IMG/VR virus record: IMGVR_UViG_3300022173_000056
Coordinates: 1-46,665 of that record
Length of the DNA: 46,665 nucleotides
Source of the DNA: a virus
Lineage: Duplodnaviria > Caudoviricetes
Direction: 5' to 3' (one strand)
Below, in pieces: positions 4,735 through 42,137 of this stretch. The position numbers and the translations under genes were made by a program. The first letter of the stretch is position 1; every line of letters begins with the position of its first letter. The notes below the pieces were generated by a model. The model was not told where the DNA came from. It was given only the letters and a program-made list of their open reading frames with translations, and made no database searches.

Positions 4735-5077
4735 GATCGCTGCATGGTGGAACTACAGTAGGATCATATTCCTACAAGTAGTCGGCTTCCTCGTCCTGAT
4801 CATAAACGAGCTGCTTCCCATGTTGATGGGCTTCGACTTCGAAGCTTTCTTCACCCATGAGATCAGCGTCATGATCATACTGGGCATCCAAGTCGCCACA
4901 GCCGTTCTGCGTTTAAACACGTTTGCCCCGGTCGGGGCGACGGCTGAGGACAAGGAAGCGCTCAGCTCTGTGATTAACTCCTCTGTCATCACCGGCAGCT
5001 CGGGCCGAGACTATGACGTAGGGGACAACATCAAGCAGGTTGACGAGCCCAGCCAGCGCTCACCGAAAGCAGAATGA
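4724..5077 (+). CDS. Membrane protein of the lysis cassette (holin/antiholin-like)
   Basis: Two predicted TM helices; GAGGAG RBS; follows the lysin. Confidence 0.55.
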   Translation: MFTKIAAWWNYSRIIFLQVVGFLVLIINELLPMLMGFDFEAFFTHEISVMIILGIQVATAVLRLNTFAPVGATAEDKEALSSVINSSVITGSSGRDYDVGDNIKQVDEPSQRSPKAE

Positions 5078-5078
5078 C

Positions 5079-5495
5079 ATGTGGGCCACTCTTGTATCGA
5101 TAATCACTGGACCCCTGCTTAAAACAGCACTGGGGGCCTATGTAGAGAAGCTCAAAGCCAGCGGGCAACATGAGAATAAGGTGGTCGAGCTGGCGGCTCG
5201 GACGCTGGAACTCGATGCGCAGGAAGCGCGTTTAAACGCAGATACCAAGCGCAATATCCTTGGGCACTGGTATGCCCCGGAGAACCTGTTCGCCTACTTC
5301 ATCGCCTTCCCGTACTGGTTCAAGGCGGTGACGGTGGACAACGTGATAGGCTCGATCTGGGAGCTGGGCTGGTCTACGCCAGCTCTGCAGGGCGCTACAG
5401 CCGAGATTATGATGATGGTCATGGTGTTCTGGTTCGGCAAGCGCAGTATCACCACGGTCGCCACGATACTGGCCAGCGCATTTGGGAAGCGTTGA
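5079..5495 (+). CDS. Membrane protein, 3-TM holin-like
   Basis: Amphipathic N-terminus, coiled segment, two TM helices, FWFGKRS motif near the C-terminus. Confidence 0.55.
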   Translation: MWATLVSIITGPLLKTALGAYVEKLKASGQHENKVVELAARTLELDAQEARLNADTKRNILGHWYAPENLFAYFIAFPYWFKAVTVDNVIGSIWELGWSTPALQGATAEIMMMVMVFWFGKRSITTVATILASAFGKR

Positions 5496-5520
5496 CAATA
5501 GGAACTCTCTCCTATATAGT
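5492..5520 (+). promoter_or_regulatory. Sigma70-type promoter TTGACA-N17-TATAGT
   Basis: Near-consensus -35 (5492-5497) and -10 (5515-5520) with a 17 bp spacer. Confidence 0.7.
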
Positions 5521-5526
5521 ATCTTC

Positions 5527-5591
5527 TGGTGATCCCTCACCACTTCTCCACAAAGTTAGACCCCGGCTTGCTCCTCCGGGGTCTTTCTTTT
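5527..5591 (+). ncRNA. Candidate small RNA (about 65 nt) with C/U-rich anti-SD-like motifs
   Basis: Lies between the promoter and the terminator with no ORF; hairpin TGGTGA-TCCC-TCACCA, CTTCTCCA linker, CTCCTCC in the terminator hairpin. Confidence 0.5.
5558..5591 (+). terminator. Rho-independent terminator at the convergence of the late and replication blocks
   Basis: AGACCCCGG/CCGGGGTCT stem followed by TTCTTTT. Confidence 0.85.
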
Positions 5592-8697: not shown

Positions 8698-10308
8698 TCA
8701 ATTAAACTCCGGGGGTTCGTACATGCCGCGAGGATTGTCGTCGGTTTTCTTGCCCCAATTGTACCCGATTGCCATCTCCGCTTCAATCTGCATACGCCGG
8801 GTGATACCGTCTGCGCCCTTGACAGGGATTGGTATTTGAAGTAAGCGGATCGTGTTGTGTAGGACAGTAGTCCTATCTGCGGAAACTTGTCCTAAGATAG
8901 CATCGTGTATCTGCGCGAGCAACTCTACTTCGTCGTTGTCACCTCCGGTTGGGTCTTGCTCTCTCCACACCCTGTACATCCCGAGATCAAGTATATCCGC
9001 CACTGAGCTTTGAGGTCCAAAGGCAAGACCCTGCTTGATTGTATGTGGTTCCCAAGGCCGACCAAATAGCGTGATTTCTCTGCCGAGGACATTGGTGAGT
9101 GGCAGATGGTCCTTAATGCGTGCTGCAACTCCTTGTTGCCACGCGCGGATGTACGGAAACTCATGGAAGTAGTTCTCCTGTGCGCGATACGCCGCCTTCA
9201 TTGGAATGCGGGCGATCATGGAAATGCCGGGCGGTGTCAGACCAAAGTTACTTCCATGTTGTATTCGTTTGGCTTGAAAACGAAAATCATGACCTTCAAC
9301 ATTGTCCCAGTCGGGTAATCGCTTTGCAATTGCCTTATCTTTCTTAAGGTCTCCGTTCCAAGGCAACTCCGGCCAGACCAACCTAGCAACATAGGTGTGA
9401 ACATCGCCCGAGGCGTGTGCCTCAATATACACTTTGTCTCCTGCAAGGTGAGCGACAACGTTACTCTCTGCTTGTTTAAGATCGGCGTAGAAGAGGAGCT
9501 TGCCGGGGTCGGCGGTGAATATTCGTCGATGACGCGGAGCAACGTTTTGAGCGTTACCCCCCTCTCCGTAAGGGTTTTTAGAACTGCTCTGTCTTCCGGT
9601 CCAAGCCGCGCCGATATTGAAGGAAGAAGGGTATCTTCCATCCTTTGATAGTCGAGCTTGAAGACTTCCGAGTTGTTTCTTTTTGTCTCGGATAGCGAGG
9701 ATGCCGTCGAGGATGGGTCTGTGTTCTTCGAACTTGTTGGCGATGCGCTCAAGGATATCTCCCCCTGCTGATCTCTTTCCTACCTTGTTAGTATGTACAG
9801 GAATACCCAGAAGATCGTAAATAAGATGATCAACATGGTCGCTGCTGTTGGCATTGAAGGGGTCAGGAATAAGACGGTCAGCGCCGCAAGCAACGCAATG
9901 CCTGCCATGCTCATCGCGGCCCTTCTCCCATTTCTCCCACTTATGCTTTCCATCTTTGCGTTGCGGGACCGGGCAGCTTCCAGTATTCTTTGTGGTGTAA
10001 TCCCAACGGGATCGTATGGTATCGGCTTTTGCCAAGCCCGAAATGTCTTTTGCCAACTCACGTTTCAACTCCGTGATCATCTTCTGCTTTTGAATACCGT
10101 CGATGTTGATGCCTCGTTGCATCATGGCCATGGCGGGACCCTGCAGCGCTCGCTCAAATGCGTAGGTGCGAGCCTGAGCCTCGTTTAAACGCGGAAGCAA
10201 TACGTCGGCAATCTCGCGAGTGCCGGTATTGTCCAACGCATTATAGAGCCAGTCTTTCAACTGGCCCTTGGGCATGTCTTTGGCTTGTTGGAGTGTGTAG
10301 ATTGGCAT
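8698..10308 (-). CDS. DNA polymerase family A, polymerase half (starts with the ExoIII motif)
   Basis: YNALD (ExoIII), TGRQSSSKNP, motif A DLKQAE, motif B RFQAKRIQHGSNFG, motif C QIHDAIL; TAATG coupling at 10308. Confidence 0.92.
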   Translation of the reverse strand: MPIYTLQQAKDMPKGQLKDWLYNALDNTGTREIADVLLPRLNEAQARTYAFERALQGPAMAMMQRGINIDGIQKQKMITELKRELAKDISGLAKADTIRSRWDYTTKNTGSCPVPQRKDGKHKWEKWEKGRDEHGRHCVACGADRLIPDPFNANSSDHVDHLIYDLLGIPVHTNKVGKRSAGGDILERIANKFEEHRPILDGILAIRDKKKQLGSLQARLSKDGRYPSSFNIGAAWTGRQSSSKNPYGEGGNAQNVAPRHRRIFTADPGKLLFYADLKQAESNVVAHLAGDKVYIEAHASGDVHTYVARLVWPELPWNGDLKKDKAIAKRLPDWDNVEGHDFRFQAKRIQHGSNFGLTPPGISMIARIPMKAAYRAQENYFHEFPYIRAWQQGVAARIKDHLPLTNVLGREITLFGRPWEPHTIKQGLAFGPQSSVADILDLGMYRVWREQDPTGGDNDEVELLAQIHDAILGQVSADRTTVLHNTIRLLQIPIPVKGADGITRRMQIEAEMAIGYNWGKKTDDNPRGMYEPPEFN

Positions 10309-10565
10309 TAGTACACGTACACCGGACGCCATTCAGTATTGATGATCTCCCCAGCGTGGACACGTTCCCACTGCTCTTCGAGCGTGTGCTTGTACACTGG
10401 CTCGTTCCAGTATGTACCGAAAAAGCCACTGTAGTATCCAGCCTCGACCACTTCCTTGTGGAAGCGAAGGTTCGTAGGAAACACCTTGCGCCACTTAGGT
10501 ACATTGTTCCCGGATCGAGCATCTGGCAGCGGCAGATAGGCTGCACTAAAATCTTTCAACGTCAT
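10308..10565 (-). CDS. Hypothetical 85-aa protein inserted between the two polymerase halves
   Basis: ATG at 10565 after a GAGGGAG RBS; stop overlaps the polymerase ATG. Confidence 0.65.
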   Translation of the reverse strand: MTLKDFSAAYLPLPDARSGNNVPKWRKVFPTNLRFHKEVVEAGYYSGFFGTYWNEPVYKHTLEEQWERVHAGEIINTEWRPVYVY

Positions 10566-10566
10566 A

Positions 10567-11553
10567 TTAACTCTCCCTCTTCTCTTGGGACTTGCGGCCC
10601 CAACTCTTCCATGCACCTTGCTCTGTATAACTTGCACCCATGAACTCAAGGTCCTTGGGCAATTCAGGATACAGCGCGTGGTGGATCAATCTAGTATCGT
10701 GCGTGAACGCCCGAGGAGCGATCCCCATATGGTCAATAAACCAGTAAGCGTCATATCCTCCAAAATTTTGTCCGAGTTTTGGTACTTCACTTTCCATGAT
10801 CTCCTTTATCAGTTTCCACGCTTCGACTTCATCCGCCACGCTATAGAAACTCTTGTTTGGTTTGCGTATATCCACAAGTGGGACATTGATAGCGTGTTCT
10901 CGATCTGGTGCAAAACCAATGTTGGTAACGAGCCCCCATCCAGTTTCAATATCAACCGAAAGCAGTTCTGAATTATATATGCGAGGAAGGTAATCGCGAA
11001 TTTCCTGTATGGTTGGCTCGATGAAAAGCTCTCGATGAGGGAGCCTAATATCACGGTACGAGCTTTCGCGGTAGGCTCTGATGATATCTGCGGTGACGAC
11101 TGAGAAGAACTTCCACTGTTTCTGTACGAAGCGCGGTTCGTAAGTGGGGAGGAGCTTCGCACCCGGAATGACAAACTCCGCTGGCTGAATGCTACCACGC
11201 TGACTATCAATGCCACGGCTCCCAGTAAAAGCCCATAGAGCAGTAGCCCCAAGAGGAACGATGATATTAGGAGCAACGTCAAGAAGCTCTCCACGAAGAC
11301 GCTCAAGGCTATCAGCGGCACTTTCACGAGTGACCAGTTTAATATCGTCAAGACTTTTTGGAGTATCGAAGACGTGCCCAATGAAGAACTCCCTGCGATC
11401 AAGGTTTGCGGTACGCATCATAGCGTTAAAGACGTTACCCACTGTGCCTGAAAGCGGGTAACCACGTTCGGTGTCAGTCTGCCCCGGAGCTTCGCCAACG
11501 AACGCGATACGAGCTGGAAACTCTCGGGGGTACTGTGGTGGTACGCTGATCAC
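10567..11553 (-). CDS. Uracil-DNA glycosylase (family 4)-like domain plus 3'-5' exonuclease (N-terminal half of the split PolA)
   Basis: FVGEAPG, IVPLGATAL, PTYEP; ExoI VDIET, ExoII QNFGGYD, HDTRLIHH. Confidence 0.85.
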   Translation of the reverse strand: MISVPPQYPREFPARIAFVGEAPGQTDTERGYPLSGTVGNVFNAMMRTANLDRREFFIGHVFDTPKSLDDIKLVTRESAADSLERLRGELLDVAPNIIVPLGATALWAFTGSRGIDSQRGSIQPAEFVIPGAKLLPTYEPRFVQKQWKFFSVVTADIIRAYRESSYRDIRLPHRELFIEPTIQEIRDYLPRIYNSELLSVDIETGWGLVTNIGFAPDREHAINVPLVDIRKPNKSFYSVADEVEAWKLIKEIMESEVPKLGQNFGGYDAYWFIDHMGIAPRAFTHDTRLIHHALYPELPKDLEFMGASYTEQGAWKSWGRKSQEKRES

Positions 11554-11870
11554 TGTAGCGGCGAACTGATTGATACGTTATCTACAACTTCAATTTCAGC
11601 GGCGCTGTTAAAGTCGGAATAGATTATCCCTGTAGCCAATAAAACAACTGCTCTGCCAAGAGAGTGATTTGTTACCATGTAGACGTTCTGATCATTACTG
11701 CCTTTGGGATAACGAAACATCTGCCCAACTTTAAGATCAGTAATCCGAGGCAGTGGCGGAATGTTCTTATCGATAACTGTAATCTGATTGCGCATCTTTT
11801 GCTCCTTCTGTTTTTTAAATCGATCATAAGGGTCGAGATAGTTTACCCCATCCCAGTGCCAAATCTCCAT
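11550..11870 (-). CDS. Hypothetical protein
   Basis: ORF in operon orientation, coupled to the downstream gene; start uncertain. Confidence 0.6.
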   Translation of the reverse strand: MEIWHWDGVNYLDPYDRFKKQKEQKMRNQITVIDKNIPPLPRITDLKVGQMFRYPKGSNDQNVYMVTNHSLGRAVVLLATGIIYSDFNSAAEIEVVDNVSISSPLQ

Positions 11871-11890
11871 AGCAATCCCTCGTTTAAACG

Positions 11891-11953
11891 AATAGGAGAG
11901 GAGCCGTAGCTCCCCTCCCAGTATCGAAAATAGCCGCTCTTTCGAAAGCTATT
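11891..11953 (-). terminator. Tandem hairpins / terminator after the SSB-like gene
   Basis: On the - strand, AATAGC..GCTATTTT and GGAGGGGAGC-TACG-GCTCCTCTCC-TATT. Confidence 0.6.
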
Positions 11954-12404
11954 ACTCGACGGGTGCGAACTCCGTGACGTTGTTCGCGATGCCCTGAGTG
12001 TTGTCCTTGCGCTGGAACGCGCGCTGGTTCAGGTAGCCGATGACTTCGGAACCCTTCGCAGCTTTCAGGGTCTCCTCGATCTTGCCCTTGGCTTCGACGC
12101 CATGTTTGGCGAGCAGCTTACGAACCTGATCCCAAGAGGCACCGTCCTCGATATAGATACGGGTGAACAGCTTGTTCTCCGTGATATCGTAATCGGGACC
12201 CAGAGCTTCCAGCTCGGAGGTGTCCACATCGTCCATCGCTTCCTTGGCGACGTGAACGAACATCACAACCGGGCTCTTGCCATCTTCCTTCGACGGCTGG
12301 AACACGGCGTTGCTGAGCCGCAGGAGATAGGAACCTACCGGCAGAACCTTCGGCTCCTGAATGTTATCCCAGCTAAGATCAGCGATATCTGCATAATTAC
12401 TCAT
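11952..12404 (-). CDS. Putative ssDNA-binding protein (DUF669-like)
   Basis: LPVGSYLLRL N-terminal motif; acidic; directly downstream of a Sak4-like ATPase. Confidence 0.6.
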   Translation of the reverse strand: MSNYADIADLSWDNIQEPKVLPVGSYLLRLSNAVFQPSKEDGKSPVVMFVHVAKEAMDDVDTSELEALGPDYDITENKLFTRIYIEDGASWDQVRKLLAKHGVEAKGKIEETLKAAKGSEVIGYLNQRAFQRKDNTQGIANNVTEFAPVE

Positions 12405-13321
12405 ATTTTCTTCTCCTCAATTGCGGGTTGTACAACCGCGTTACTTCCGCAGGTAGCCAATGGTGGGGCCAGTTCTGCGAAAATTCTTGCTAGGCCGTCT
12501 GATACGTCGGCCTTATCGAAGCTTACCTTAGATGGAAGTTTCAAATCCAACTCAGGTCGAGGGACCGTTCTAAGTACCCTCGCTTTTAACCGATCCCCAG
12601 TGAACTCGTTCTCTGCAAGAATGAGCGTGGGGAAGTGTCCGCCAATAGTCGGCGGCAGTCCTTGTCCGAGGGCGCTGGGGAAGAGCCGAGTAGCGATGAT
12701 ATCCGCCGCCCTGTTCTTCAACTCCTTAGTCACGTCCTCGTCACCTTTTTGAATATCCTTCGGCCCGATCATTTTCAGATGGGACAGAACGACTACGTGG
12801 AAGTGGTTCGCTTCCGAGGTGAGCTTCTCGATGAAAGCATTCTGCTGCTCCATCGCAAGGCCCCAGACTTGCTGGGTAGTATCCAGCGGTGTCTTGTTGG
12901 AAAGCGAACGCTGGCGGCGGAAACTAGCTTCGCCCATTGAGGTAAGGCTGTCAAGGACGACAACAGTATCACAGCCCCACTCTTTGGATTTGCCAAGGTT
13001 CACCTCCGTGCCATCATCCTCCTTGTACTTCCACTCGTCCATCATGTTAAGCGCACTGGCGAACGCTGTAGGGACGCCAGTGGTCTCGATGAAACGCTGC
13101 CCGTTTCGCATCTTGTCCTCGAACGTAGCGATATCGAGGTTCTGCAGCTTGTCCTTGTCGGTGTAGGTCAGTAGAGACTGACTGTTACCGTCGAAGTCGA
13201 GCAGTCGAACCTTATACCCTGCGTTGAGGAGAGATGCAATAGAGCCCGTCTTTGCTGTGCCGGGATAGCCGACAATCATCATGCGAACAGGCTGGCGAAG
13301 GGCTATCTTATCGGCTCGCAT
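12401..13321 (-). CDS. AAA_24 / Sak4-like recombination ATPase
   Basis: Walker A GYPGTAKT, LLDFDG, Walker B VVVLDSLT, VVLSH; lies between the nuclease and SSB. Confidence 0.8.
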   Translation of the reverse strand: MRADKIALRQPVRMMIVGYPGTAKTGSIASLLNAGYKVRLLDFDGNSQSLLTYTDKDKLQNLDIATFEDKMRNGQRFIETTGVPTAFASALNMMDEWKYKEDDGTEVNLGKSKEWGCDTVVVLDSLTSMGEASFRRQRSLSNKTPLDTTQQVWGLAMEQQNAFIEKLTSEANHFHVVVLSHLKMIGPKDIQKGDEDVTKELKNRAADIIATRLFPSALGQGLPPTIGGHFPTLILAENEFTGDRLKARVLRTVPRPELDLKLPSKVSFDKADVSDGLARIFAELAPPLATCGSNAVVQPAIEEKKI

Positions 13322-13322
13322 G

Positions 13323-13598
13323 TTAGCCCCGTCCCTGCGGCAGAGTATCGTCAAGGCTCGGAGTGCGATACTTGGGCTCAGCAGTGCCATTGCCTTCCGC
13401 TTGCAGCTCTTTCCGTACCTCATCGAGGAACATGGAGACTTCCATCAGTTTCATCGGGCAGCCGCCAACCTCTTCGAAGAGAACGGACAGCATGATCTCA
13501 GCCATCTCCCGCCGACCTTCCGGGGTCTGGAGAGTGAACCCGGCAATCATCTTACTGAAAGCACGAGCAACGATTTTTGCAATTTCACGATCTGACAT
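13323..13598 (-). CDS. Hypothetical protein
   Basis: AGGAG RBS; operon orientation. Confidence 0.65.
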   Translation of the reverse strand: MSDREIAKIVARAFSKMIAGFTLQTPEGRREMAEIMLSVLFEEVGGCPMKLMEVSMFLDEVRKELQAEGNGTAEPKYRTPSLDDTLPQGRG

Positions 13599-13626
13599 AT
13601 TTGCTCCTGTTTGCTAAGCGCGAAAC

Positions 13627-14079
13627 TTAGTGGAAAGTTCGCGGCTTGTCAACTGACGGGGTTCCGTCAAGGTTGTTTGTTTGTTCGCGGCTTTCTTTCA
13701 CCGCTGCTGACAACTCCTTGACTGCCTTGTAGTTCTTGCTGCCATTGAGAAGAGCGTCACTGGCGGCGTCTGCGTACATACGACCAGCCTCACTGTCGAG
13801 GCTGAGCGTCTGCTTAACATCGGGGAAGCGAATTTCCTCCCCCTTCCACAGTCGAGCGGTGAAGTCCTGCATGTGAACCATGAAGTGAATTTGATGCTCG
13901 ATAGGAATAATTCCCTCAAGCATAAACTGGATCACTGCAGCGTTCGCAGCCATTGTGAAGGTTGCGATCTTCTTCTCTTCTTCACTCAGCTCTCGGGTCG
14001 GTGGAACGCGGCCATAGTCCACCGCTCCCGTCATGAAGTCCTCACGCTTCTTGTCATCATCCTTGCTGTCGGCGCTCAT
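13627..14079 (-). CDS. Hypothetical protein
   Basis: ATGA coupling; operon orientation. Confidence 0.7.
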   Translation of the reverse strand: MSADSKDDDKKREDFMTGAVDYGRVPPTRELSEEEKKIATFTMAANAAVIQFMLEGIIPIEHQIHFMVHMQDFTARLWKGEEIRFPDVKQTLSLDSEAGRMYADAASDALLNGSKNYKAVKELSAAVKESREQTNNLDGTPSVDKPRTFH

Positions 14080-14336
14080 GCGTTCGGGTATCCCTGTTTG
14101 GTAGCGTTGCGATGTGCCTCGATCTCGTCGAAGATTGCTCCATCTTCTGCGAAGTCAAGCAACTTCTTCCCACGGACAGTTTCTCCCATCAAGAGAGTGC
14201 CGACATAGGAGCCAGACAAAGAAGAGAGTTTGCTTGCGGCGGCATCTGAGATCACACCTTCCTCGACCAACTGGTCAAGCGCTTCGGTCCAACCAAGAGC
14301 TTCGGCAATAGCGGTATCGTGTTTAAACAACGGCAT
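14076..14336 (-). CDS. Hypothetical protein
   Basis: GGAGG RBS; tight packing. Confidence 0.7.
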   Translation of the reverse strand: MPLFKHDTAIAEALGWTEALDQLVEEGVISDAAASKLSSLSGSYVGTLLMGETVRGKKLLDFAEDGAIFDEIEAHRNATKQGYPNA

Positions 14337-14338
14337 AG

Positions 14339-14536
14339 TTAACCCTCCATACTTGCGGTGATCAATTCACCGACCACATCATAACCTGCAGCTTGCACTT
14401 CCGGCATATCTGCAGTCGCTTCATCGAACAGCTCTCGATGTTTCATCGCCATCTCTGGCGTTCCGCCGCCGACAGCTTCCCGCATCGTGGCGAGAAGAAT
14501 TTTCGCAGCAGCGTACTTGTTTTCAACAGTGCTCAT
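14339..14536 (-). CDS. Hypothetical protein
   Basis: GAGGAG RBS; tight packing. Confidence 0.7.
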   Translation of the reverse strand: MSTVENKYAAAKILLATMREAVGGGTPEMAMKHRELFDEATADMPEVQAAGYDVVGELITASMEG

Positions 14537-14537
14537 A

Positions 14538-15671
14538 TTATCGCTCCTCTAGTGGGTTCCAACGTTTCTGCACAAAGTCTGCCTTGAGAAATCGCTCCCG
14601 CTGCGCAGGGTCCTTGGAGCAAATCCCGTTGAAGTTACACATCTTACAATTCGTCTTGTTCATCGGCCAGTAGTTGTCTGCAGCGAACCGCTCCGCTTGC
14701 TTGATCCACCATCCGATCTCGTGTAGCGTCTCCTCCCGTTGCGCTTCCGTCCTGTAGAATACCTGAGTGGCGAACTTCGCTCCTCCAACGAGCGTTTGAG
14801 CCGCCTCAATAGCCACGCCTTTGAGGCCAAGGTCAGGGAATAGAAGTGACCCTGCGAGGTCATACAGATCAACCTGAATGTTAGGGCTGTACTGTTTCCA
14901 ATAGAGCGGACCAAGGAAACTCTTCGTCGTTTTGTTATCAGTGATAAAAGTTTCGATAGTCCCAAACGTTTTGATGGCGTCCATATGTCCAGCCATGACA
15001 TACGGCTGACCGTCAGGCGTCTGGAAAGGAAGCGGGAGCTTAAAGGAAAGCTCCACTGCTGGCGTTCCATCAGGGAAGGCAAATGGGGATAAGCCTGCAC
15101 CACCAGAAGCGTCGGGCTGTTCTTCACAGTACCACTCCACTAGCCGAACGAGGCTTTCTCGATTTTTAACTTTATCGTAAGGCGCATATCTTCGCTCTGA
15201 TTGCGTGGGACTATGGCAGACACCGCAAGTGTCGGGTCCCCCTCCGGGAAACCATTTTCCTTTATGAGAGTAAGGACATTTTGCAGCATTGCCTTTAGCG
15301 TTTCGATATTTCTCTGTGCCTGTGCATCGCCATTGGGGCTCGTACTCTCCTCCCCATCCTTTGCCAGCGTTAACTCCGTATCCATGATCTTGTCCATCGT
15401 TCTCAGAGGTCCAGCTATCCTCGACAACTCGCTGTACAGCAGCCAGAGTTGCTTCATATTTTGTTCGTCCCATAAGACGTGCTTTTGCATAGACCTCAGT
15501 AGCGGAAGCAAAGTAGATACCGTACTCAAGATCAACCGCTGAGCCTCTCCAGCCGTTAAGGATACCATATTCATAACTCCTTGGGCAGAACATGAGGGCA
15601 CGAAGGGACGTGCTGTCCCAGACAACTTGAAGATTGGGGATTGTGGGCGAGTAGGGGGACGGTGCGGTCAT
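14538..15671 (-). CDS. PD-(D/E)XK exonuclease (RecB/Cas4-like)
   Basis: STSL..FCPR, AVELSF, GHMDAI, TDNKTT, QVDLY, C-terminal CKMCNFNGIC. Confidence 0.85.
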   Translation of the reverse strand: MTAPSPYSPTIPNLQVVWDSTSLRALMFCPRSYEYGILNGWRGSAVDLEYGIYFASATEVYAKARLMGRTKYEATLAAVQRVVEDSWTSENDGQDHGYGVNAGKGWGGEYEPQWRCTGTEKYRNAKGNAAKCPYSHKGKWFPGGGPDTCGVCHSPTQSERRYAPYDKVKNRESLVRLVEWYCEEQPDASGGAGLSPFAFPDGTPAVELSFKLPLPFQTPDGQPYVMAGHMDAIKTFGTIETFITDNKTTKSFLGPLYWKQYSPNIQVDLYDLAGSLLFPDLGLKGVAIEAAQTLVGGAKFATQVFYRTEAQREETLHEIGWWIKQAERFAADNYWPMNKTNCKMCNFNGICSKDPAQRERFLKADFVQKRWNPLEER

Positions 15672-16081
15672 GCTATTCCTCGATTGGCCCATTGTCTTGC
15701 TGTTTTAAACTCACCAGAGCGAACAGCGTGAAAAAGATTAACACGCTCGTCGCGAGTTTTAATATGAAGTTCCGTAGCTATGTCGGTCGCGAGCTTTGTC
15801 AAGTCGAAAAACTTTTGGCTCGTTGTCACCACAATGTTCACCCCATTCTTACGATACGACGCGACAGGAGTGTGGCCCTCTGCTGCATCGTAGGTAGCAC
15901 TGTCCCAAGGATCAGCCACATAGCCATTTCGTTCAAGCAGATCGGTTAGGCCCATCTCGTACATCACCACCCAGTCATCGTCAGAAGCTTCTGGCGGCTT
16001 GGAGCAAATCGCTCGGGAGCCAGTGTGGAAGAGCTTGTATCCTTCCGCTTGTAGCAGTTGGATCATAAGTGGCATCTTCAT
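15668..16081 (-). CDS. Minimal nucleotidyltransferase-fold protein
   Basis: TGSR..C..PP..SDDDWVV resembles the Pol-beta-type GS..DxD motif. Confidence 0.5.
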   Translation of the reverse strand: MKMPLMIQLLQAEGYKLFHTGSRAICSKPPEASDDDWVVMYEMGLTDLLERNGYVADPWDSATYDAAEGHTPVASYRKNGVNIVVTTSQKFFDLTKLATDIATELHIKTRDERVNLFHAVRSGEFKTARQWANRGIA

Positions 16082-16254
16082 TTGTACTTCTCCTTCCTTG
16101 TTTTACATAGTGCTTTGCGCACGAGATTGATTGCATATTTTGATGGAGCAAGCCCATGAACTCGTTTAAACGCTCGAAGATTACGAAGCTCTTGGAGATA
16201 CCAGTGCCGCTCGATTTCATACACCGGTATCGCTGGCAGTCCGCCGCCGCTCAT
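16078..16254 (-). CDS. Hypothetical basic protein
   Basis: ATGA overlaps at both ends. Confidence 0.55.
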   Translation of the reverse strand: MSGGGLPAIPVYEIERHWYLQELRNLRAFKRVHGLAPSKYAINLVRKALCKTRKEKYK

Positions 16255-16481
16255 GCGTTTCTCCATACACAGGCTCGAAGATTGCCGTACTCGGCATAGG
16301 TGAGCCATTGACAGATATCAACTTCGCCACCAGTTGCCTGATGGATCGTCTGGGTCTCGTGGTTGAAGAACACGGCGACCGCTCGGTTCGTGCCAGTGAT
16401 CCTACCCAGAAACGTCCCCTCTTTTGGTACGAGGGAGATATCGGTCTGCCAATTCTTGAACGTTCGGCTGTAATCGGGCAT
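16251..16481 (-). CDS. Hypothetical protein
   Basis: Operon orientation; GGAG RBS. Confidence 0.55.
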   Translation of the reverse strand: MPDYSRTFKNWQTDISLVPKEGTFLGRITGTNRAVAVFFNHETQTIHQATGGEVDICQWLTYAEYGNLRACVWRNA

Positions 16482-16507
16482 TACGGTCTTTCTCCAATAC
16501 TTTGCCA

Positions 16508-16675
16508 TTATTTCTCCACTGGGTCATCTGCGAAGCTAACATAACCCTTATATGGGCCTCCTGCGATGCACTGGCCCCGAACCGCACAACCGAAGCGACC
16601 TTTAACAATAAGTCTGCATCTACAGTCAACGCCGCAGGACCATGGGATCGTTTCATATTCAGCTTCCTTTGGCAT
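16508..16675 (-). CDS. Small Cys-rich hypothetical protein
   Basis: CGVDCRC..GC..QC; start uncertain. Confidence 0.4.
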   Translation of the reverse strand: MPKEAEYETIPWSCGVDCRCRLIVKGRFGCAVRGQCIAGGPYKGYVSFADDPVEK

Positions 16676-16835
16676 CGTTGTCCCGATACTGCAGAAGCAC
16701 ATCTGTGTTCGTATCGTCATCGTGCGTCAGATTGGCCAGCTCGTCGGCCAGCAGCTTAAACACGAGGTCCTGTCCCTTGGGCATCTGCGAAGCAGCGCGA
16801 CGGACAGCGAGTTCAATTCGGTTAACAACGTTCAT
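16659..16835 (-). CDS. Hypothetical protein
   Basis: ATGA coupling; GGAG RBS. Confidence 0.5.
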   Translation of the reverse strand: MNVVNRIELAVRRAASQMPKGQDLVFKLLADELANLTHDDDTNTDVLLQYRDNDAKGS

Positions 16836-16978
16836 GCGTAAATTCTCCAAATCACACAGCACTGAGCTGCGCCATAGCTGAGATACATCACCGCGTCGGG
16901 ATAGTTCTTGTGGAAGATAAATATCCCTGCCGACACCACATAGCAGAGAGCTGGCAGCAGCAGGGATATAAACAGCAT
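16832..16978 (-). CDS. Small membrane protein
   Basis: MLFISLLLPALCYVVSAGIFIF hydrophobic stretch; starts right after the upstream stop. Confidence 0.5.
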   Translation of the reverse strand: MLFISLLLPALCYVVSAGIFIFHKNYPDAVMYLSYGAAQCCVIWRIYA

Positions 16979-16980
16979 GG

Positions 16981-17334
16981 TTAGGCCGTCGCCGTTGCGG
17001 AAGGAGCCGGTACTTCCGGCTGAGTTACATGCGCCCACGGATTGCCGCGACGGTTGATGAAGTTCTGCAGCGCCCAAGCATACTCGTCCTGCGAGGGCCA
17101 GCGAACAGTGCCACTGTCCTGCGAAACTCCCTGCGGGATTGCGAAGAGCTTAGCGAAACGGCGGAACGTCTGCGGGTTGAAGTTCTCGGTGTTGAATGCG
17201 TCAACGTCAAAGCCGAAAGCCTGAGCGACTACGTTGCGCAGTTGGCCATTGGCGACAATCGTGCGACCGTTGCGAACGTCAGAGCGCAGGGCCGAGAGCG
17301 TCAGCTTGATATCTTCGTTGGTATAGCGGCTCAT
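16981..17334 (-). CDS. Hypothetical protein
   Basis: TAATG coupling; AGGAG RBS. Confidence 0.75.
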   Translation of the reverse strand: MSRYTNEDIKLTLSALRSDVRNGRTIVANGQLRNVVAQAFGFDVDAFNTENFNPQTFRRFAKLFAIPQGVSQDSGTVRWPSQDEYAWALQNFINRRGNPWAHVTQPEVPAPSATATA

Positions 17335-17750
17335 TAGAGTTTCTCCTTCATTTTCGCATAGGCAGCTTTCATGGCTGCGAGACGGCGAGTGTTAGCTTGT
17401 TTTCGGATGTTGTCAATATAGCCCATGTCATCAGCGTGGTGTCCACGTTTTCCGTTCGACCAATGCTGTTTAGCGTCGGCTATGGAGTAGAACACCCGGC
17501 AACCAGCCGTGAGGTAGACTTCCTTTCCGCGTTTAAACGCCGCGAACTCATAGCCGTCCCGCTTAACAACTGCGGTGGTGAAGTCCTTACCCTTCACACG
17601 GGTCAAATCTTCCGGTTGCTGAAATGAGGTGCGATTTGCTTCCAGATCGAACAATTTTACATCATTGTCGATGTCTGGCTTAGTAGTCAGGGCGACAAAC
17701 ACATCACCATCACTGTTAAGATAGACACCACCTCTCTTAATCCGCTTCAT
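17334..17750 (-). CDS. Hypothetical protein
   Basis: AGCRVF..A..HW motif; operon orientation. Confidence 0.7.
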   Translation of the reverse strand: MKRIKRGGVYLNSDGDVFVALTTKPDIDNDVKLFDLEANRTSFQQPEDLTRVKGKDFTTAVVKRDGYEFAAFKRGKEVYLTAGCRVFYSIADAKQHWSNGKRGHHADDMGYIDNIRKQANTRRLAAMKAAYAKMKEKL

Positions 17751-19198: not shown

Positions 19199-19443
19199 TT
19201 CCCACTCCCTTCGATCTGCCAAATGATCCGATTGATCCGGGCAGATGTGCCGACTACATTCGCAAGGTTCTCGCCATTGTCAATGATAGAGAACCGCGTT
19301 TTCGCTTTGATATAAGCCTCGTGGACTTCATCCAGCTCTTGCTTCTGCGCATCGTTTGCGTTTAAACGCACTGCATAGATACGGTGCCGCATAGCGGCGA
19401 ATTGTTCTTCACGCAACGTCGATCCTCCTCGGGTCCAGAGCAT
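19195..19443 (-). CDS. Hypothetical protein
   Basis: Operon orientation. Confidence 0.55.
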   Translation of the reverse strand: MLWTRGGSTLREEQFAAMRHRIYAVRLNANDAQKQELDEVHEAYIKAKTRFSIIDNGENLANVVGTSARINRIIWQIEGSGK

Positions 19444-19774
19444 TACGGAGAGATTGAAGGAAGGCTTTGGTAGTGTTAAGAATTTCAGTTAAGTCTTTGG
19501 AGTTAGCTACAAGCCCATTCCAACGATCCATACGAGCAAGCTGTCCCTCTACTCGCGCAAGGTAATACATCTGATCCTGTAAGGAGGACTGTCCTGCCAG
19601 TGCCCGTTCACCACGGAGCCAGCTAGCTCTCTGCTCTTCCAAAACCTTTTCCTGTTCTTCGTTTGTGAGAGCATTGAACGCTACTGTGGCAGTATGGATA
19701 AGGTCTTGTAGTGGGGTGTGGCCCAGACATTTACCTTCGAGGTTCTTACTGGTGCAAGACATTTCTCTCTCCAT
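19409..19774 (-). CDS. Hypothetical protein, first gene of the leftward operon
   Basis: ORF adjacent to the divergent intergenic region. Confidence 0.6.
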   Translation of the reverse strand: MEREMSCTSKNLEGKCLGHTPLQDLIHTATVAFNALTNEEQEKVLEEQRASWLRGERALAGQSSLQDQMYYLARVEGQLARMDRWNGLVANSKDLTEILNTTKAFLQSLRNALDPRRIDVA

Positions 19775-19887
19775 GAATTAGTGAGGTTCCACCGCGTTTA
19801 AACGATAGCGCGTCACCTCTTTACAGCCTCTAGAAAGCTGGAACCGCTTTCGCCCGCCTAACTTAGCGTTTTCAACGGCTTACGGAA

Positions 19888-19904
19888 TGCGGCAAAATGT
19901 CGCA
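19888..19904. promoter_or_regulatory. RegR/RegA/ActR-type box (GCGGC-N5-GTCGC) in the divergent promoter region
   Basis: TGCGGCAAAATGTCGCA matches the RegR box consensus; intergenic between divergent operons. Confidence 0.5.
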
Positions 19905-19983
19905 CTTGTATTGCAGCGCAAACCGCTCATTTTTGCCAAGCGGCGATAGTGCTTGCGCAAAATCTCACAGTTGGAGCTACACG

Positions 19984-20469
19984 ATGAAAGAGGCTAGGAT
20001 CATATTCCCGGTCAATGGTGCTTTGAATGCTGCGACGGTGGAAGCAATCCACAACATTACCCACGCATTCGGCGGCGCTACTGAGTTCACCGGGACAGGC
20101 ATTTGGAAACACCCAAATGGTATGTTCGTGCAAGAGAATGTGCGTATCTGTGACATTGCTTATGAGCAGAACACAGAGAATGATCTGATACTCTTCGGCA
20201 TCGCGAAAGCGTTTCGTGACGTGACGAATGAGGTGGAGGTGTATCTGCGATATGGCAATGGCCAAGTGCAGATGATATCGGAAAAGGCCGACATGATGGA
20301 CAATGGACGGCCTAACTGTTGGTACTCGCCCGACTATGCAGGTATCGTCGATGCAATCAATTCGCTTATTGACGACGGCCAGACACCGGGAACGCGGATC
20401 GGGGCGTTTGAGTTCTTGTTTAAACGCATGAAGGACGGCAGCAAGGGAAATCACAATGTCAACAAGTGA
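19984..20469 (+). CDS. Hypothetical protein, DUF3574/PII-like fold candidate
   Basis: AFGGAT..GTGIW..NG..VQE..EVEVY pattern; GGAG RBS; first gene of the rightward early operon. Confidence 0.5.
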   Translation: MKEARIIFPVNGALNAATVEAIHNITHAFGGATEFTGTGIWKHPNGMFVQENVRICDIAYEQNTENDLILFGIAKAFRDVTNEVEVYLRYGNGQVQMISEKADMMDNGRPNCWYSPDYAGIVDAINSLIDDGQTPGTRIGAFEFLFKRMKDGSKGNHNVNK

Positions 20470-24746: not shown

Positions 24747-24750
24747 AGAG

Positions 24751-25855: not shown

Positions 25856-25876
25856 TCTCATTCAAAGGACTAGAAG

Positions 25877-26551: not shown

Positions 26552-26570
26552 ATCGGCCCAACGGACAATA

Positions 26571-26593
26571 GCCGCCCTACGGGGCGGTTTTTT
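26571..26593 (+). terminator. Rho-independent terminator
   Basis: GCCGCCC-TACG-GGGCGGT followed by a T run. Confidence 0.85.
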
Positions 26594-27557
26594 GTTGCCT
26601 ATTCAATGGCTTAGCCGCCGTTCGGATCGACCGGGAACAAAAGGCGAAAACCGCGCCAGTGCGTTATTTTGCGCGATCCGATACCAAGGTCCGGAAAAGG
26701 GCCAAACGCGCCAGCGGGCTTCTAATTCGCTTTAAATGGCATTGCGCCCAGCGCATAGCTCACCGCGCTGCAGCGGGAACCAAGCTATGAACCGCGCCAA
26801 TTCCGCTTGCGGCGATACCGTGTTTAAACGCGCAGATAGGAGTGAACCGGCAGTGCGATCTTTCCAAGGAATGAATTGCTATTACAACTCAATACGGCCC
26901 TATTCGGATTATCCGAATATGTATCAAATCGGCCCTGTCAAGTCTTTTGTGAGGGGTGCGGCGTTTAGGCGCAGACGCATTTAGCGCTTGACAGGAATAT
27001 AATCCTCAACCTTGTTGATATGCAGATAGGAGCGCATTCCTATGTCAAGTCACAATCGCGTGATGTTGCATGGCACAATCACACTTCCGCCACAATTTCG
27101 ACACGAAAGCACCACAATTCGGCCTCAAAAAGGTCGATTTCCCCATGGGGCGGCCCGGCGCGGTGGCGGGAGCTTGGGGGACCCATGTGTTGTTCGTGGA
27201 GGTATTCGGGTATGATCGCGCTTTGTTAAGTAATTGAAAACAAAAGAGAAATCGCGATGTTCTCCCTTTGTCTTAGAGAGAAATATATAAAAAAAAATAG
27301 AAAACAAACAAACAACCTTGACAAGGAAGGAAGGATGTTTGTCGATTTATGTATCTAACGACCGCTTGCGGCTGCTGGGAAAACGCGGAAACAAACAAAC
27401 AACCTTGAAAGCGCAATTGTTCGTTTAAACGCGAAGGAAAAGCAGATCGCCGCGCCCTCGCTCCGCTCGGGCTGAGGTGGTATCAGCTTACCGAACTTGA
27501 CAAATGTGGCGCAAGTAGGGCATAACAGGGGCGGAAGTTAGCGCAGGAGCAAAAAAT
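26594..27557. other. About 1 kb non-coding control region (candidate origin and/or packaging terminus)
   Basis: No convincing ORF; several TTGACA hexamers on both strands, palindromes, a GC-rich tract, an A-rich tract and direct repeats. Confidence 0.55.
27302..27408 (+). repeat. 20-bp direct repeat AAACAAACAAACAACCTTGA x2
   Basis: Copies at 27302-27321 and 27389-27408, after an A-rich tract. Confidence 0.85.
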
Positions 27558-39005: not shown

Positions 39006-39844
39006 TGGCAAGTCCTCCGTTTAATATCAATCAGGCTCTTCCGGGCGATACAGATATCGTCTCGCAGCATCCGGCGAACGCTAGGACGTTCCGCGATGTA
39101 GTCGAGAGCTGGCTGTTGGTCAATCACGATACGAATGGCTATCATTCTCGTGTCGATATCCCGCGCACCGCGTCTCCGACTACGCCAGCAGCGACGACTG
39201 ACGTGCTGTATACGACCACGACTGGTCGGCTCAAGATCAAACATCCTGACGCGACGGAAGAGTACGTCGGGCTTCCGCCCGGTGTGATCGTATTCGGAGC
39301 TGGGGCTCTCGATACTGGCTATCTTGAAGCAGATGGCTCCGCAGTTAGCCGCTCTACCTTCGCTGACCTCTATGCGAAGATCGGCACGACGTATGGTATT
39401 GGCGATGGCGTCACCACGTTCAATCTGCCCGACCTCAAAGGCCGTGTTATCGCTGGTATTGACGCCAGCAGCACTCGACTGAGCACTGCGTACTTCGGCA
39501 CAACGCCGATTATGGCTGCGACCGGTGGTTTCGAAGCGTTCTCGATTGCTATTCTCAATCTGCCTGCCCATCATCACTCTGTATTCTTAAACGATCCGGG
39601 GCACACTCACACTCTCAACAATGCCAATGGGCTTCTGACCACAAGTGTGTTTGGGTCTACATGGTCTGGTGGTAGTCCCGGCGGAATTGTGACCATCACG
39701 GAAAATAGTGCAACGACCGGCATTACTGTTCGTGATACAGCAGGCGGCGCTGGTACTGCAAACCAAACCGCAGATACTGGCGGCGCTACGCCGATCCCTC
39801 GTACACAGCCGACCATCATTCAGCGCGCAATGATTAAGTATTGA
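39005..39844 (+). CDS. Tail collar domain fibre protein
   Basis: GYLEADGSAVSRSTFADLYAKIGTTYG.GDG.TTFNLPDLKGR; LPAHHH, DPGHTH. Confidence 0.85.
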   Translation: MASPPFNINQALPGDTDIVSQHPANARTFRDVVESWLLVNHDTNGYHSRVDIPRTASPTTPAATTDVLYTTTTGRLKIKHPDATEEYVGLPPGVIVFGAGALDTGYLEADGSAVSRSTFADLYAKIGTTYGIGDGVTTFNLPDLKGRVIAGIDASSTRLSTAYFGTTPIMAATGGFEAFSIAILNLPAHHHSVFLNDPGHTHTLNNANGLLTTSVFGSTWSGGSPGGIVTITENSATTGITVRDTAGGAGTANQTADTGGATPIPRTQPTIIQRAMIKY

Positions 39845-39848
39845 TCCT

Positions 39849-41660
39849 ATGGCAAGCAAGAAATCTACAGCGGTAGTCCTCCCGAACCTCGGTATCTACT
39901 ATGACCGGGGACGGCTGGCGCTTAACCCTCGTATGCTTGCTGATGGAAATAACTTTCGTGTTAAGCTTGGTACGCTTACAAACCTCAATATGGGCTGGAC
40001 CCGTTTCGGCAGTTTCCAGCTTAATGGCCCGGTGACACTGATCCGCAACTTCTTGAAACGAGATGCGACGGAACAACTCGTGTTTGCTTCGCTCACCGAT
40101 ATCTATAAGTTCGTGAACGACACTACGGTCACGTATCTCACGCCTCGCTATGAAGTTGGTACTGCGGCTCGGGCTGGCAGCACTGTCACCGGAGCTGGCG
40201 GTGCGAACTTCACCACTGGTGCAATCGCTATCGGCGATGAAATCACCTTCGGCACTGCTGGCGTAGTGAGTACGAGTGCGACGTGGCATCTGATCACTGG
40301 CGTCGGGGGAAGCACCACGCTTACTACGGCCACCTCTGGCACTGTAGTCGCTGGCCCATACACGATCCGTAAGAAATTTACTGGCCGTATCTCCGACGTG
40401 TGGCAGACAGCGGTCTTTGTGAATGCAAGTCCCAGCAACAGCGACGAACTCTGGCTCACGAATGGTGTGGATAACATCGTGCGCTGGAACGGCACTGATA
40501 CGCAGGTAGAGGAGATGTCAGCACTTGGCTTCACGGCGAAGGCGATTGGCGTTTACTCTAACATGATGATCTTCGGCAACCTCGTGCAGAGTGGTACTGC
40601 GAAGCCAACTGATATGATTAACAGCAATCCCGGTGAGCCGCAGAACGTAACGACAGGGCTGAGTGAACAGTTCAAGGTTCATGGTAACGTCGATCCGATC
40701 CTCCGTGTCGAGGTGTTGGGCGATAACCTTGTTTTCTACTCCAACGCTTCGGATGGAGCGATCACGATTGCCCAGTTTGTTGGCGATCCACTCGTATTCG
40801 CATTCCGTCAAATCTCCAAAGGCGTCGGCCCGGTTGCAGCGAAGGCAGTCGCCAACTTCGGTAACTACCACGAGATCATCGCAGCCGACAGTGAGTATTT
40901 CTTCGACGGCGCTACTGTGAAAGCGGTGAACAAGCACGTATGGCGAGAAGCTCTTCGCCAGCAAGACCCGTCTCGTATCTCCTTTACCTACGCACATTTC
41001 GATGAAGAGAACGGCGATCTGATCTGGGTGCTTCCGTCTACCAGCGATCCAAATGCAGCAACAACCGGTGGCCCGAACTCCGCGTTCGTGGAACACTATC
41101 TTGAGGACCCCGGTAACGGACTTCCTTCTCCCTACTCGCGACGAACCTTTCCGTTCACTGCGACAGGCTACTTTAAACGCCAGACTGGCCTAACATGGGA
41201 TCAGCTTACGAACACATGGGACACGTACAACTTCCGCTGGAACGACAGGTTCTTCTTCTCTGCATTTCCGCTTAATGTAGGCGGCGATGATACGGGCAAG
41301 CTCTACACCTTTAACGTATCGCAGGATGCGAATGGTGCAGCTCTTCCCAGCTTCGTCCGTTTCGGTCGTCGTGCAATCGCTGACGGTCGTATGCGTGGAA
41401 TGCTCTCTCGTGTGTATCCGTTCGTGACGCAATTGACTAATCCACTGAACGTTACTGTTCGCATGGCAGATAGCGGCGAAGGTGAGCCAATGATTGTCGA
41501 TACGCAGAGCTTCGATCAGACGCAGCCGGAAGGTGGGCACTTTACCGTCCACTATCGCCGGGGTCGCTTCTACGAAGTACAGTTTGGCTCAGATGGTCCC
41601 GCTCAGCCGTGGATCATCACTGGCTATGACACTGATATCAAACGAGGGGGCCGCAGATGA
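39849..41660 (+). CDS. Tail nozzle / packaged-DNA stabilisation protein
   Basis: 603 aa, beta-rich, after the adaptor; RGRFYEVQF near the C-terminus. Confidence 0.65.
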   Translation: MASKKSTAVVLPNLGIYYDRGRLALNPRMLADGNNFRVKLGTLTNLNMGWTRFGSFQLNGPVTLIRNFLKRDATEQLVFASLTDIYKFVNDTTVTYLTPRYEVGTAARAGSTVTGAGGANFTTGAIAIGDEITFGTAGVVSTSATWHLITGVGGSTTLTTATSGTVVAGPYTIRKKFTGRISDVWQTAVFVNASPSNSDELWLTNGVDNIVRWNGTDTQVEEMSALGFTAKAIGVYSNMMIFGNLVQSGTAKPTDMINSNPGEPQNVTTGLSEQFKVHGNVDPILRVEVLGDNLVFYSNASDGAITIAQFVGDPLVFAFRQISKGVGPVAAKAVANFGNYHEIIAADSEYFFDGATVKAVNKHVWREALRQQDPSRISFTYAHFDEENGDLIWVLPSTSDPNAATTGGPNSAFVEHYLEDPGNGLPSPYSRRTFPFTATGYFKRQTGLTWDQLTNTWDTYNFRWNDRFFFSAFPLNVGGDDTGKLYTFNVSQDANGAALPSFVRFGRRAIADGRMRGMLSRVYPFVTQLTNPLNVTVRMADSGEGEPMIVDTQSFDQTQPEGGHFTVHYRRGRFYEVQFGSDGPAQPWIITGYDTDIKRGGRR

Positions 41661-41812
41661 TCAAGAGTGTTGTGAAGGTCGATGAGGAAGCCGTGAAGGC
41701 ATTCAACGAGGAGCAGAAAGACTGGACGGCGACGTGTAGGGTTTGCGGTGTGAAGCTCATCGGGACATTAGGCGAAATCCGTAAGCATGGAGAATTGTGC
41801 CATGGCAAATAA
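41657..41812 (+). CDS. 51-aa protein with CxxC..H..C motif
   Basis: ATGA coupling; CRVCG..H..C; not in the ORF track. Confidence 0.5.
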   Translation: MIKSVVKVDEEAVKAFNEEQKDWTATCRVCGVKLIGTLGEIRKHGELCHGK

Positions 41813-42137
41813 AGTCAATCGCTCTCCGCTTATTCCGCAGCCGATTAACCTCTCTAACTTCGCTGGCATCTCAGACTGGGCGACGAGTTTAGTGTCGAGT
41901 GTTATCTCCGAACTTCGCGACCATGCTCTGCGTTTAAACACGGCAGGGATGGCGGATGGCAGTGAAGCTGCGGCTGGTCCGGTTGTGTTAAAAACGTATA
42001 CGAAGACAACTCTGCCGAGTGCTGCGACCTACATCAACGGCATGATCATTGTGTCGAACGACGTTGGCGGGCTCACTCCCGCATTCTCTGATGGCACAAA
42101 CTGGCGGCGAACGGCGGATAGGAACATCATCTCGTGA
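41802..42137 (+). CDS. Small tail-associated protein
   Basis: LPSA..G..I.VS..PAFSDGTNWRR motif. Confidence 0.6.
   Translation: MANKVNRSPLIPQPINLSNFAGISDWATSLVSSVISELRDHALRLNTAGMADGSEAAAGPVVLKTYTKTTLPSAATYINGMIIVSNDVGGLTPAFSDGTNWRRTADRNIIS

Follow-up and report, generated by a model that had tools for sequence, protein, structure and literature searches.

A palindromic DNA word repeated in a podovirus-like genome co-travels with a SprT-like protease gene, its candidate reader

Introduction

Several described systems read short DNA words or act on the proteins that do so. A parS/ParB system comprises a ParB/CTPase gene, a ParA and a cluster of 16-bp parS sites. Among zinc proteases, SPRTN and Wss1 recognize DNA structure and are not known to read sequence, and in switches of the ImmA/ImmR type the peptidase cuts a separate helix-turn-helix (HTH) repressor that acts at one or a few operators. 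The stoperators of Cluster A phages are described, in the part of the report available to us, as asymmetric 13-mers that occupy short gaps between genes, follow the direction of transcription and are bound by a monomer with an HTH plus a stoperator domain, such as L5 gp71 and the TipsytheTRex repressor (PMC9283540). Here we analyze IMG/VR virus record IMGVR_UViG_3300022173_000056, whose whole 46,665 bp (GC content 53%) constitute the window of this study. It carries an array of the palindromic core GTTTAAAC and, at 25877-26551, a gene for a SprT-like protein, which we propose as the reader of the array.

By family searches the genome is podovirus-like, with a split PolA bearing an N-terminal uracil-DNA glycosylase (UDG) domain, a Sak4-like annealase and a PD-(D/E)XK nuclease; further family matches comprise a T7-0.7-like kinase, an AAA_25 helicase, an Sf6-type TerS, TerL, portal and capsid. 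A close cultured relative was not found: megablast and one tblastn search were empty, capsid and terminase matches stayed below 30% identity, and the best PolA match was Caulobacter phage Kuura (30%).

Results

The palindrome is selected at the DNA level

The core GTTTAAAC occurs 23 times in the window, where 0.33 (order-2 Markov model) or 0.89 (order-3) copies are expected, and 14 of the cores extend to the full CGTTTAAACG. This exact count agrees with the initial annotation, which had counted 23 cores and 14 perfect 12-mers by hand and judged them far above chance at an assumed GC content of about 55%. The flanks it had read also stand: all 23 cores sit in exactly K-Y-core-R-M, and over the 46 arms position -1 is C in 36 and T in 10, while position -2 is G in 28 and T in 18. 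The forms CGTTTACACG and CGTGTACACG are named beside CGTTTAAACG as probe sequences. A hand-curated gene model places 15 sites inside genes, 8 of them encoding R-L-N and 7 x-F-K, and the other 8 between genes, which is the division given before; both strands and two frames are used.

Synonymous-codon shuffling, the codon-preserving control that the initial annotation had proposed, yielded on average 0.36 and at most 4 copies in coding DNA over 2000 rounds, versus the 15 seen. Its statement that the sites are written in rare codons holds only in part: TTA (58 of 1105 Leu codons), TTT (168 of 525) and AAA (277 of 742) are minor codons of the window, whereas CGT and AAC are its commonest codons for Arg and Asn. 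Symmetric arms are found in 15 of 23 sites, and about 15.7 are predicted for independent arms; the arms thus match no more than independent ones would, which indicates a protein-type site, not a hairpin. These data demonstrate that the array is selected at the DNA level and that the window word is a selected YGTTTAAACR in 23 copies, as the initial annotation had held in reading the DNA word itself as a selected, protein-site-like element. The probability that the array arises from chance, codon bias or an RNA or single-stranded DNA hairpin is negligible. A few intergenic sites do adjoin hairpins or can fold (25750-25769, 25831-25848), but the use of both strands and two frames speaks against this origin, and the shuffle and the arm-independence test rule out the hairpin and codon-bias readings.

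Most loci fetched by the SprT-like protein carry the word

A locus search by PolA found nothing, and a capsid search fetched 53 loci, 36 of which, picked mostly by length, were examined as whole records. The core is present in 13 of these 36 capsid relatives, including four of the six near-complete ones with 16-35 copies; the complete relative G012 has zero copies. When 75 window proteins were compared with 19 relatives, the product of 25877-26551 was the only non-core one that followed the word. All six word-rich records covering the region have a homolog with 47-54% identity; G034 has one at only 31%, and G012 and G005 have none. The five nearest word-free clade records, several of them fragments, form one branch of the capsid tree.

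The link extends beyond the clade. Fifty-eight loci were fetched by the SprT protein alone; they include near-duplicates, and this gene is the only one that most of them have in common with the window. GTTTAAAC is present in 41 of them, against 0.00-0.35 copies expected per locus, and in 32 of the 45 whole records fetched in this way. One bacterial assembly of 4.2 Mb has just one copy, located 300 bp ahead of the SprT gene. Outside the clade, tblastn finds a match to 25877-26551 in 13 of 24 array-bearing genomes; the next real window gene matches four. A site lies 10-160 bp upstream of the SprT gene in 17 of 50 de-duplicated loci of class A, the class of the window protein (2 expected), and such upstream sites often overlap a TTGACA-type promoter. 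GC-rich genes that otherwise favor TTC and AAG encode F-K-R near their 3' end as TTT AAA CG. In GC-rich bacterial assemblies holding such loci, GTTTAAAC is very rare (0-8 copies in 2.8-4.4 Mb in 8 of 13); the reversed-pattern control differs from it in TA content, so this rarity is not taken as depletion from hosts. As a side observation, G020 and G018 (L065-L067, L094-L095) carry second iterated words, GACTAGTC/ACTAGTCG (6-12 copies) and GATTATCAA/TTATCAAA (7-12).

Many loci fetched by the word encode the protein

Scanning for two close copies of the motif alone fetched 123 loci, of which 55 are at least 8 kb long and 35 of these are enriched beyond the seed pair; site density reaches 34 in 20 kb. 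A SprT-like protein or its ribbon is encoded within 20 of the 35 enriched loci and elsewhere in the record for three more; for the 20 non-enriched loci the number is four. Nearly all proteins found in this way are members of a distant class, class B, whose ribbon reads KKQxTRML-Cys and which is homologous to class A (hhalign 96.6%, E 5e-10). The HExxH motif has been lost in three lineages (L212/229, L231, L250/270/277), yet 19-34 sites are kept there, and L220 and L228 show a ribbon match only, with 23 and 18 sites. In the phi29-like record G084 the site flanks are stricter (WCC...GGW). This record (L389, 1-17948) has inverted terminal repeats and 25 evenly spaced WCCGTTTAAACGGW 14-mers, possibly served by an independent reader of the same core.

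Cultured phages and plasmids carry the pair

Class B is found in 162 phage records, including phages of Arthrobacter (Cluster AZ), Microbacterium, Streptomyces, Dinoroseobacter, Escherichia, Burkholderia, Pseudomonas and Bordetella, and also on 74 plasmids, mostly sphingomonad. Fifteen cultured records were chosen for host spread; 11 of them have 4-40 sites, with 0-2 for the reversed-pattern control, and 9 have a site 23-139 bp before the annotated SprT start. Liebe, VroomVroom, Elezi and Caron have 17-24 sites and Bogota 40. In cultured Cluster AZ/EH actinophages the word is GTTTACAC, in 17-24 copies including one before the SprT gene, and in Liebe six intergenic sites lie 15-132 bp before gene starts, all in one orientation. 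A further blind set of four actinophages (SpecialK, Squircle, Dismas, SWEP2) gave three results for the link and one against it. SpecialK and Squircle have no SprT and no array; SWEP2, which deviates, is 79% identical to Liebe over 27 kb and lacks the gp46-49 block. Recent gene loss would explain the SWEP2 exception, and so, too, would a different reader. In 6 of 22 site sets the sites are spaced more evenly than expected at random (P<0.05), and G035 shows strong regional clustering of sites, as does the window.

Two further observations concern these elements. On plasmids pRI-2 and pNIBR24542 (L334, L335) the SprT gene lies directly upstream of a ParA/MipZ-family gene. Other words are over-represented elsewhere, namely CCCTGGGC in Epa5 (53 versus 9; L345-L347) and CCCGCAGG in Liebe (38 versus 5; L351-L353).

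Ribbon state and sister words

Records without GTTTAAAC mostly carry a sister word, GTTTACAC, GTTTAGAC or GTGTACAC. Observed and expected counts in such records are 7 versus 0.09, 4 versus 0.10, 4 versus 0.09, 4 versus 0.03 and 4 versus 0.04 for GTTTACAC, and 3 versus 0.02 for GTTTAGAC. The word of the actinophage relatives is almost strictly asymmetric, with an orientation bias that differs between phages. CN1, Epa5, Coltrane and Dismas have a degenerate ribbon and 0-2 sites each; ribbon cysteines are missing in CN1 and Epa5, and the QxTR motif in Coltrane.

The word changes to GTGTACAC in the three cases whose ribbon has His right after the conserved Arg. G034 has an Arg-His ribbon and three GTGTACAC near its SprT gene (0.16 expected), and pRI-2 an Arg-His ribbon and two copies (0.35 expected), one of them 56 bp upstream. 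The prediction that a GTGTACAC array goes with an Arg-His ribbon came true in G107, which was picked by motif alone and has 16 GTGTACAC (0.23 expected), zero GTTTAAAC and a ribbon reading N-R-H-L. The reverse scan with GTGTACAC returned mostly chance pairs. A ribbon residue explaining the asymmetric GTTTACAC word was not found; palindrome avoidance and asymmetric reading are the candidate explanations for this asymmetry. Both words occur in the clade relative L155 (20.7 kb; GTTTAAAC 7, GTGTACAC 3), and only one SprT, with an Arg-Leu ribbon, was found in that locus.

The ribbon data bear on whether the word is read by a host or another phage protein, with the SprT protein a co-regulated partner or an enzyme acting on the reader; bait for a PmeI-type nuclease, whose recognition site corresponds to the word, would be one form of this. 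Such a reader would account for arrays without SprT (SWEP2, G084, Kuura, G096) and for a word that varies with host group, as GTTTACAC in actinophages, with no clear matching ribbon residue. Against it, the hosts range over Actinomycetota and Alpha-, Beta- and Gammaproteobacteria, and no other window gene co-travels with the word. Moreover, arrays differ with ribbon state within the same host genus (Caron versus Coltrane and Dismas), and the switch from Arg-His to GTGTACAC was predicted before it was found. We consider a reader other than the SprT protein quite improbable.

The SprT-like protein

The catalytic and ribbon residues are invariant across 120 homologs, 48 of which match PF10263 at E<=0.05; the window protein itself has no match. 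An AlphaFold model of the window protein has a mean predicted local distance difference test (pLDDT) score of 86 and consists of an N-terminal domain mostly above 90, a linker and Gly/Arg segment modeled at low confidence (~residues 141-190), and a small, confidently modeled β ribbon. The modeled N-terminal domain aligns with SPRTN (6mdx; VIA Z 9.0, root-mean-square deviation 2.6, 99 residues) and with Wss1 (5xbn; Z 7.7), and the model predicts the combination that defines SprT-like proteins, HExxH plus a third His in a SPRTN/Wss1 zincin fold. Against solved folds, the isolated ribbon gave no Z above 2.5, and the zinc-binding domain of SPRTN was not matched. A sequence search of solved structures with the SprT-like protein was empty, Foldseek against the PDB returned only weak SPRTN/selecase rows, and an Atlas search returned only unnamed clusters below 0.9. 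The zinc ribbon is predicted to be the DNA-reading module.

Invariant catalytic residues in 120 class-A homologs and a SPRTN/Wss1 fold would also fit another job for the same reader, in which the sites tag the element's own DNA and tether an active protease that clips off host defense motors, silencers or DNA-protein crosslinks. Placement mostly within genes, even spacing in Bogota, Liebe, R5C, VroomVroom, Caron and G084 (P <0.0001 to 0.04), the rarity of the word in GC-rich bacterial assemblies noted above and the GenBank label of the CN1 homolog, 'antirestriction protein', point in the same direction. We hold this job to be rather unlikely: dense arrays are kept where HExxH is dead or the ribbon stands alone, both ribbon and array are lost in CN1 itself, and the window still lacks 22 hexameric palindromes, as under restriction pressure. 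Additionally, Bas97, with SprT and 6 sites, is described as very sensitive to restriction-modification in the portion of the source available (10.1101/2024.09.12.612763). A general anti-restriction shield, considered as a candidate role, was weakened by these absent hexamers and by the sensitivity of Bas97.

Layout of the sites and neighboring genes

The positions of the cores and of the features discussed here are collected in Table 1. The initial annotation had described a genome-wide array, a picture that gives way to clustering over the early region: the interval 19.3-27.5 kb contains 15 of the 23 sites, and a single site falls in the 23.8-kb helicase/packaging/structural block (P ~2e-6), with a squared coefficient of variation (CV2) of the gaps of 2.7. 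With 10% non-coding DNA assumed, sites are enriched between genes (8 of 23, P 0.001), and 7 of these 8 fall in the dense block.

Table 1 Coordinates of the palindromic sites and of the SprT-like gene in the window
Feature	Position	Strand	Remarks
GTTTAAAC cores 1-12	4911, 5230, 10183, 11882, 14321, 16164, 17531, 19360, 19796, 20418, 21584, 22487		
GTTTAAAC cores 13-23	22701, 23139, 23525, 23920, 24252, 24725, 25756, 25835, 26822, 27423, 41932		
Two sites (cores 4911, 5230)	4909..5239		Within two small membrane-type genes after a putative endolysin; both R-L-N; gene roles read from sequence, sole family match an unknown-function PHROG
Five sites (cores 10183 in PolA, 11882, 14321, 16164, 17531)	10181..17540		Minus-strand replication/recombination arm; core 11882 intergenic, adjoining a terminator-like hairpin
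Dense block, 15 sites	19358..27432		Covers the small genes, presumed early, and the non-coding DNA preceding the helicase
Two operator-like sites (cores 25756, 25835)	25754..25844		Precede the SprT-like start codon by 114 and 35 bp
Single structural-block site	41930..41941		Inside gene 41805-42137; R-L-N
SprT-like gene, 224 amino acids, candidate array reader	25877..26551	+	Proposed from co-travel with the word
Predicted N-terminal zinc metalloprotease domain, SPRTN/Wss1 fold	25877..26302	+	H84-E85-x-x-H88, H97
Gly/Arg-rich flexible segment, then predicted Cys/His zinc ribbon	26369..26548	+	RGGKSRG-x-GSGS; ribbon from invariant Arg189

The layout also bears on a use of the sites by the same reader as a titration sink or scaffold, either for counting genome copies or for organizing or partitioning DNA with a ParA-type partner. 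Intragenic sites would be position-independent, the SprT gene stands directly before a ParA/MipZ-family gene on two plasmids, and integrase-less AZ4 phages still give turbid plaques according to the available part of the source, all of which would suit such a use. Strong regional clustering in the window and in G035 speaks against it, as do the one orientation of the Liebe intergenic sites before gene starts and the lack of any ParA/ParB match among the window proteins, and we regard it as improbable.

Several other features of the window were observed. About 1 kb of non-coding DNA before the helicase (26551-27557) contains two AAACAAACAAACAACCTTG copies, an A-rich tract and two array sites and is a candidate replication origin. 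The 22 missing hexameric palindromes (e.g. CGATCG, 0 versus 26 expected, GAGCTC, CTCGAG and CAGCTG) amount to an unusually broad restriction-site avoidance; relatives lack 2-15. The kinase gene at 22927-23757 (+) is related to the T7 gp0.7 PHROG family (E 1e-10) and was not found in 19 relatives. PolA at 8698-11553 (-) is split over two genes, one UDG-plus-exonuclease-like and one for the polymerase, that flank a small open reading frame, and both parts have homologs in the clade and in Kuura. The gene at 22288-22911 (+) encodes a 207-amino-acid protein with a helix-hairpin-helix-like IPGMG motif, recognized by eye, and no family match; it has homologs in two unrelated SprT/array phages (G039, G045). 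A lone minus-strand gene amid the plus-strand early genes, 24751-25134, encodes a basic, helical protein without a family match, with a site 19 bp past its stop codon. It was the first candidate reader and was dropped, having no homolog in any of the 19 relatives.

Discussion

A candidate self-regulating silencer

We put a probability of roughly 50% on the SprT-like protein being a self-regulating, stoperator-like silencer that acts via the array. In the first step, the C-terminal zinc ribbon very probably binds the word directly; this is the simplest account of the two-way co-travel of gene and word and of the pattern in cultured phages, including the covariation of ribbon and word. In the second step, the protein would probably repress its own promoter, as the upstream site implies. 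In the third, bound at many further sites in and between genes, it may, at about even odds, block or damp transcription by analogy with stoperators. In the window, such silencing would shut the early block and leave the late genes free; in temperate relatives it would help to establish or hold lysogeny. The last step is more speculative: the protease might be an off-switch or helper, for example through DNA-triggered self-cleavage in the flexible linker, and would not be needed for upkeep of the array. SPRTN is known to cleave itself.

Silencing is favored by the one-way intergenic sites of Liebe, by an early block that is covered and late genes that are spared, and by the phenotypes of AZ phages. 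These phages make immune lysogens, with no repressor identified in the accessible part of the report (PMC8758107), and Liebe, with a truncated SprT, forms clear plaques while the near-identical Maureen forms turbid ones, as far as the available text describes them (10.1101/2025.05.26.655371).

A considerable body of observations weighs against this proposal. Its support is wholly comparative, and the five word-free records, lying on one branch, count as one event. Arrays occur where the gene does not: SWEP2 has 20 sites and no SprT, keeping 6 of 8 sites in long aligned blocks versus 0.23 background; Kuura has 3 sites (0.06 expected) and no SprT; and 12 of the 35 enriched loci, mostly fragments, have no SprT or ribbon match. 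Neither a SprT nor a ribbon is detectable in G084 (81% complete, 25 sites) or in G096 (70% complete, 36 sites). Conversely, G055, G044 and L152 have a near-normal ribbon and no array. For the specificity switch, none of the 22 loci from the GTGTACAC scan has a SprT inside the locus, only 2 of the 5 most enriched GTGTACAC records encode one (G107, G108), and that of G108 is cut before the ribbon. As for silencing itself, 15 of 23 window sites are intragenic, family searches of the window proteins gave no integrase match, Bas97 has a CI-like repressor besides SprT, SpecialK has an integrase with neither SprT nor array, and plasmids too carry the gene/word pair. The even spacing seen in 6 of 22 sets is more in keeping with coverage than with promoters, and Liebe and Maureen differ at three further bases, according to the portion of the source at hand (10.1101/2025.05.26.655371).

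More broadly, and tentatively, these proteins might form a widespread and hitherto undescribed class of sequence-specific DNA-binding proteases, with an 8-10-bp tag repeated through phage and plasmid genomes of several phyla, a ribbon whose specificity is set by one residue and a tethered protease as local switch or guard, among them the AZ/EH immunity repressor; we lean against this wider claim as a whole. The analysis offers a target sequence and a one-residue specificity rule for a protein family that is common in phages and plasmids and whose annotation goes no further than 'SprT-like protease' or 'transcription elongation protein'. If the proposal is true, the SprT protein would be a candidate for the repressor missing in the well-studied temperate AZ/EH phages, which makes that open question directly testable, and cultured examples are at hand in tractable hosts (Arthrobacter globiformis, Streptomyces griseus, E. 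coli K-12). Additionally, a module of ~40-60 residues reading an 8-10-bp word that is rare in GC-rich genomes could serve as a tool.

Comparison with known systems

A literature search, with subscription journals mostly outside its reach, found no publication pairing the word with SprT. The array resembles parS/ParB, matS/MatP, ram/RacA, SBS/SlmA, HIP1 and uptake sequences in that all are short, often palindromic words tolerated in coding DNA. It differs from the chromosome-organizing systems in that the window has no such reader and that the word is rare in bacterial assemblies and belongs to a mobile element. The analogy to parS/ParB, matS and ram drawn in the initial annotation is not borne out, since no ParB/MatP match exists among 77 window proteins. 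The same set gave no ParA/ParB match, and the conserved word is 8-12 bp long, with no spacer. Nor is its preference for a chromosome-organizing over an operator role supported, as the word tracks the SprT gene and often lies in its upstream region, like an operator.

Among proteases, the window protein shares with SPRTN and Wss1 the protease fold, HExxH and a zinc-binding module behind the catalytic domain, whereas its predicted ribbon does not match the SPRTN zinc-binding domain. Like ImmA/ImmR, IrrE(PprI)/DdrO and CapP/CapH, it would tie a zinc peptidase to the control of a DNA-binding regulator; unlike them, it would combine protease and predicted reader in one polypeptide and act on a genome-scale array. 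For the AZ/EH SprT proteins (Lizalica gp46, Liebe/Maureen gp49), no binding site is named in the part of the paper available to us. At 19% aligned identity, the window protein falls in a distant class that has a Gly/Arg-rich segment, and it goes with GTTTAAAC, not GTTTACAC.

The comparison with Cluster A stoperators, as far as the accessible text describes them, goes furthest. Both have more than 20 copies of one word in a phage genome (23 here, though clustered), some of them before genes, and both would have one phage protein as reader, here a proposed one, with a link to lysogeny in relatives. No repressor family was found among the 77 window proteins in PHROGs and Pfam, where no dedicated gp71 search was made. 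In contrast to stoperators, the window word is an 8-12-bp palindrome with two thirds of its sites intragenic, the proposed reader combines a SprT protease with a zinc ribbon, and the gene/word pair also occurs in phages without an integrase match and on plasmids. Lacking stoperator asymmetry and intergenic placement, the array is not a member of that group, although stoperators are the system that it would most resemble in its working.

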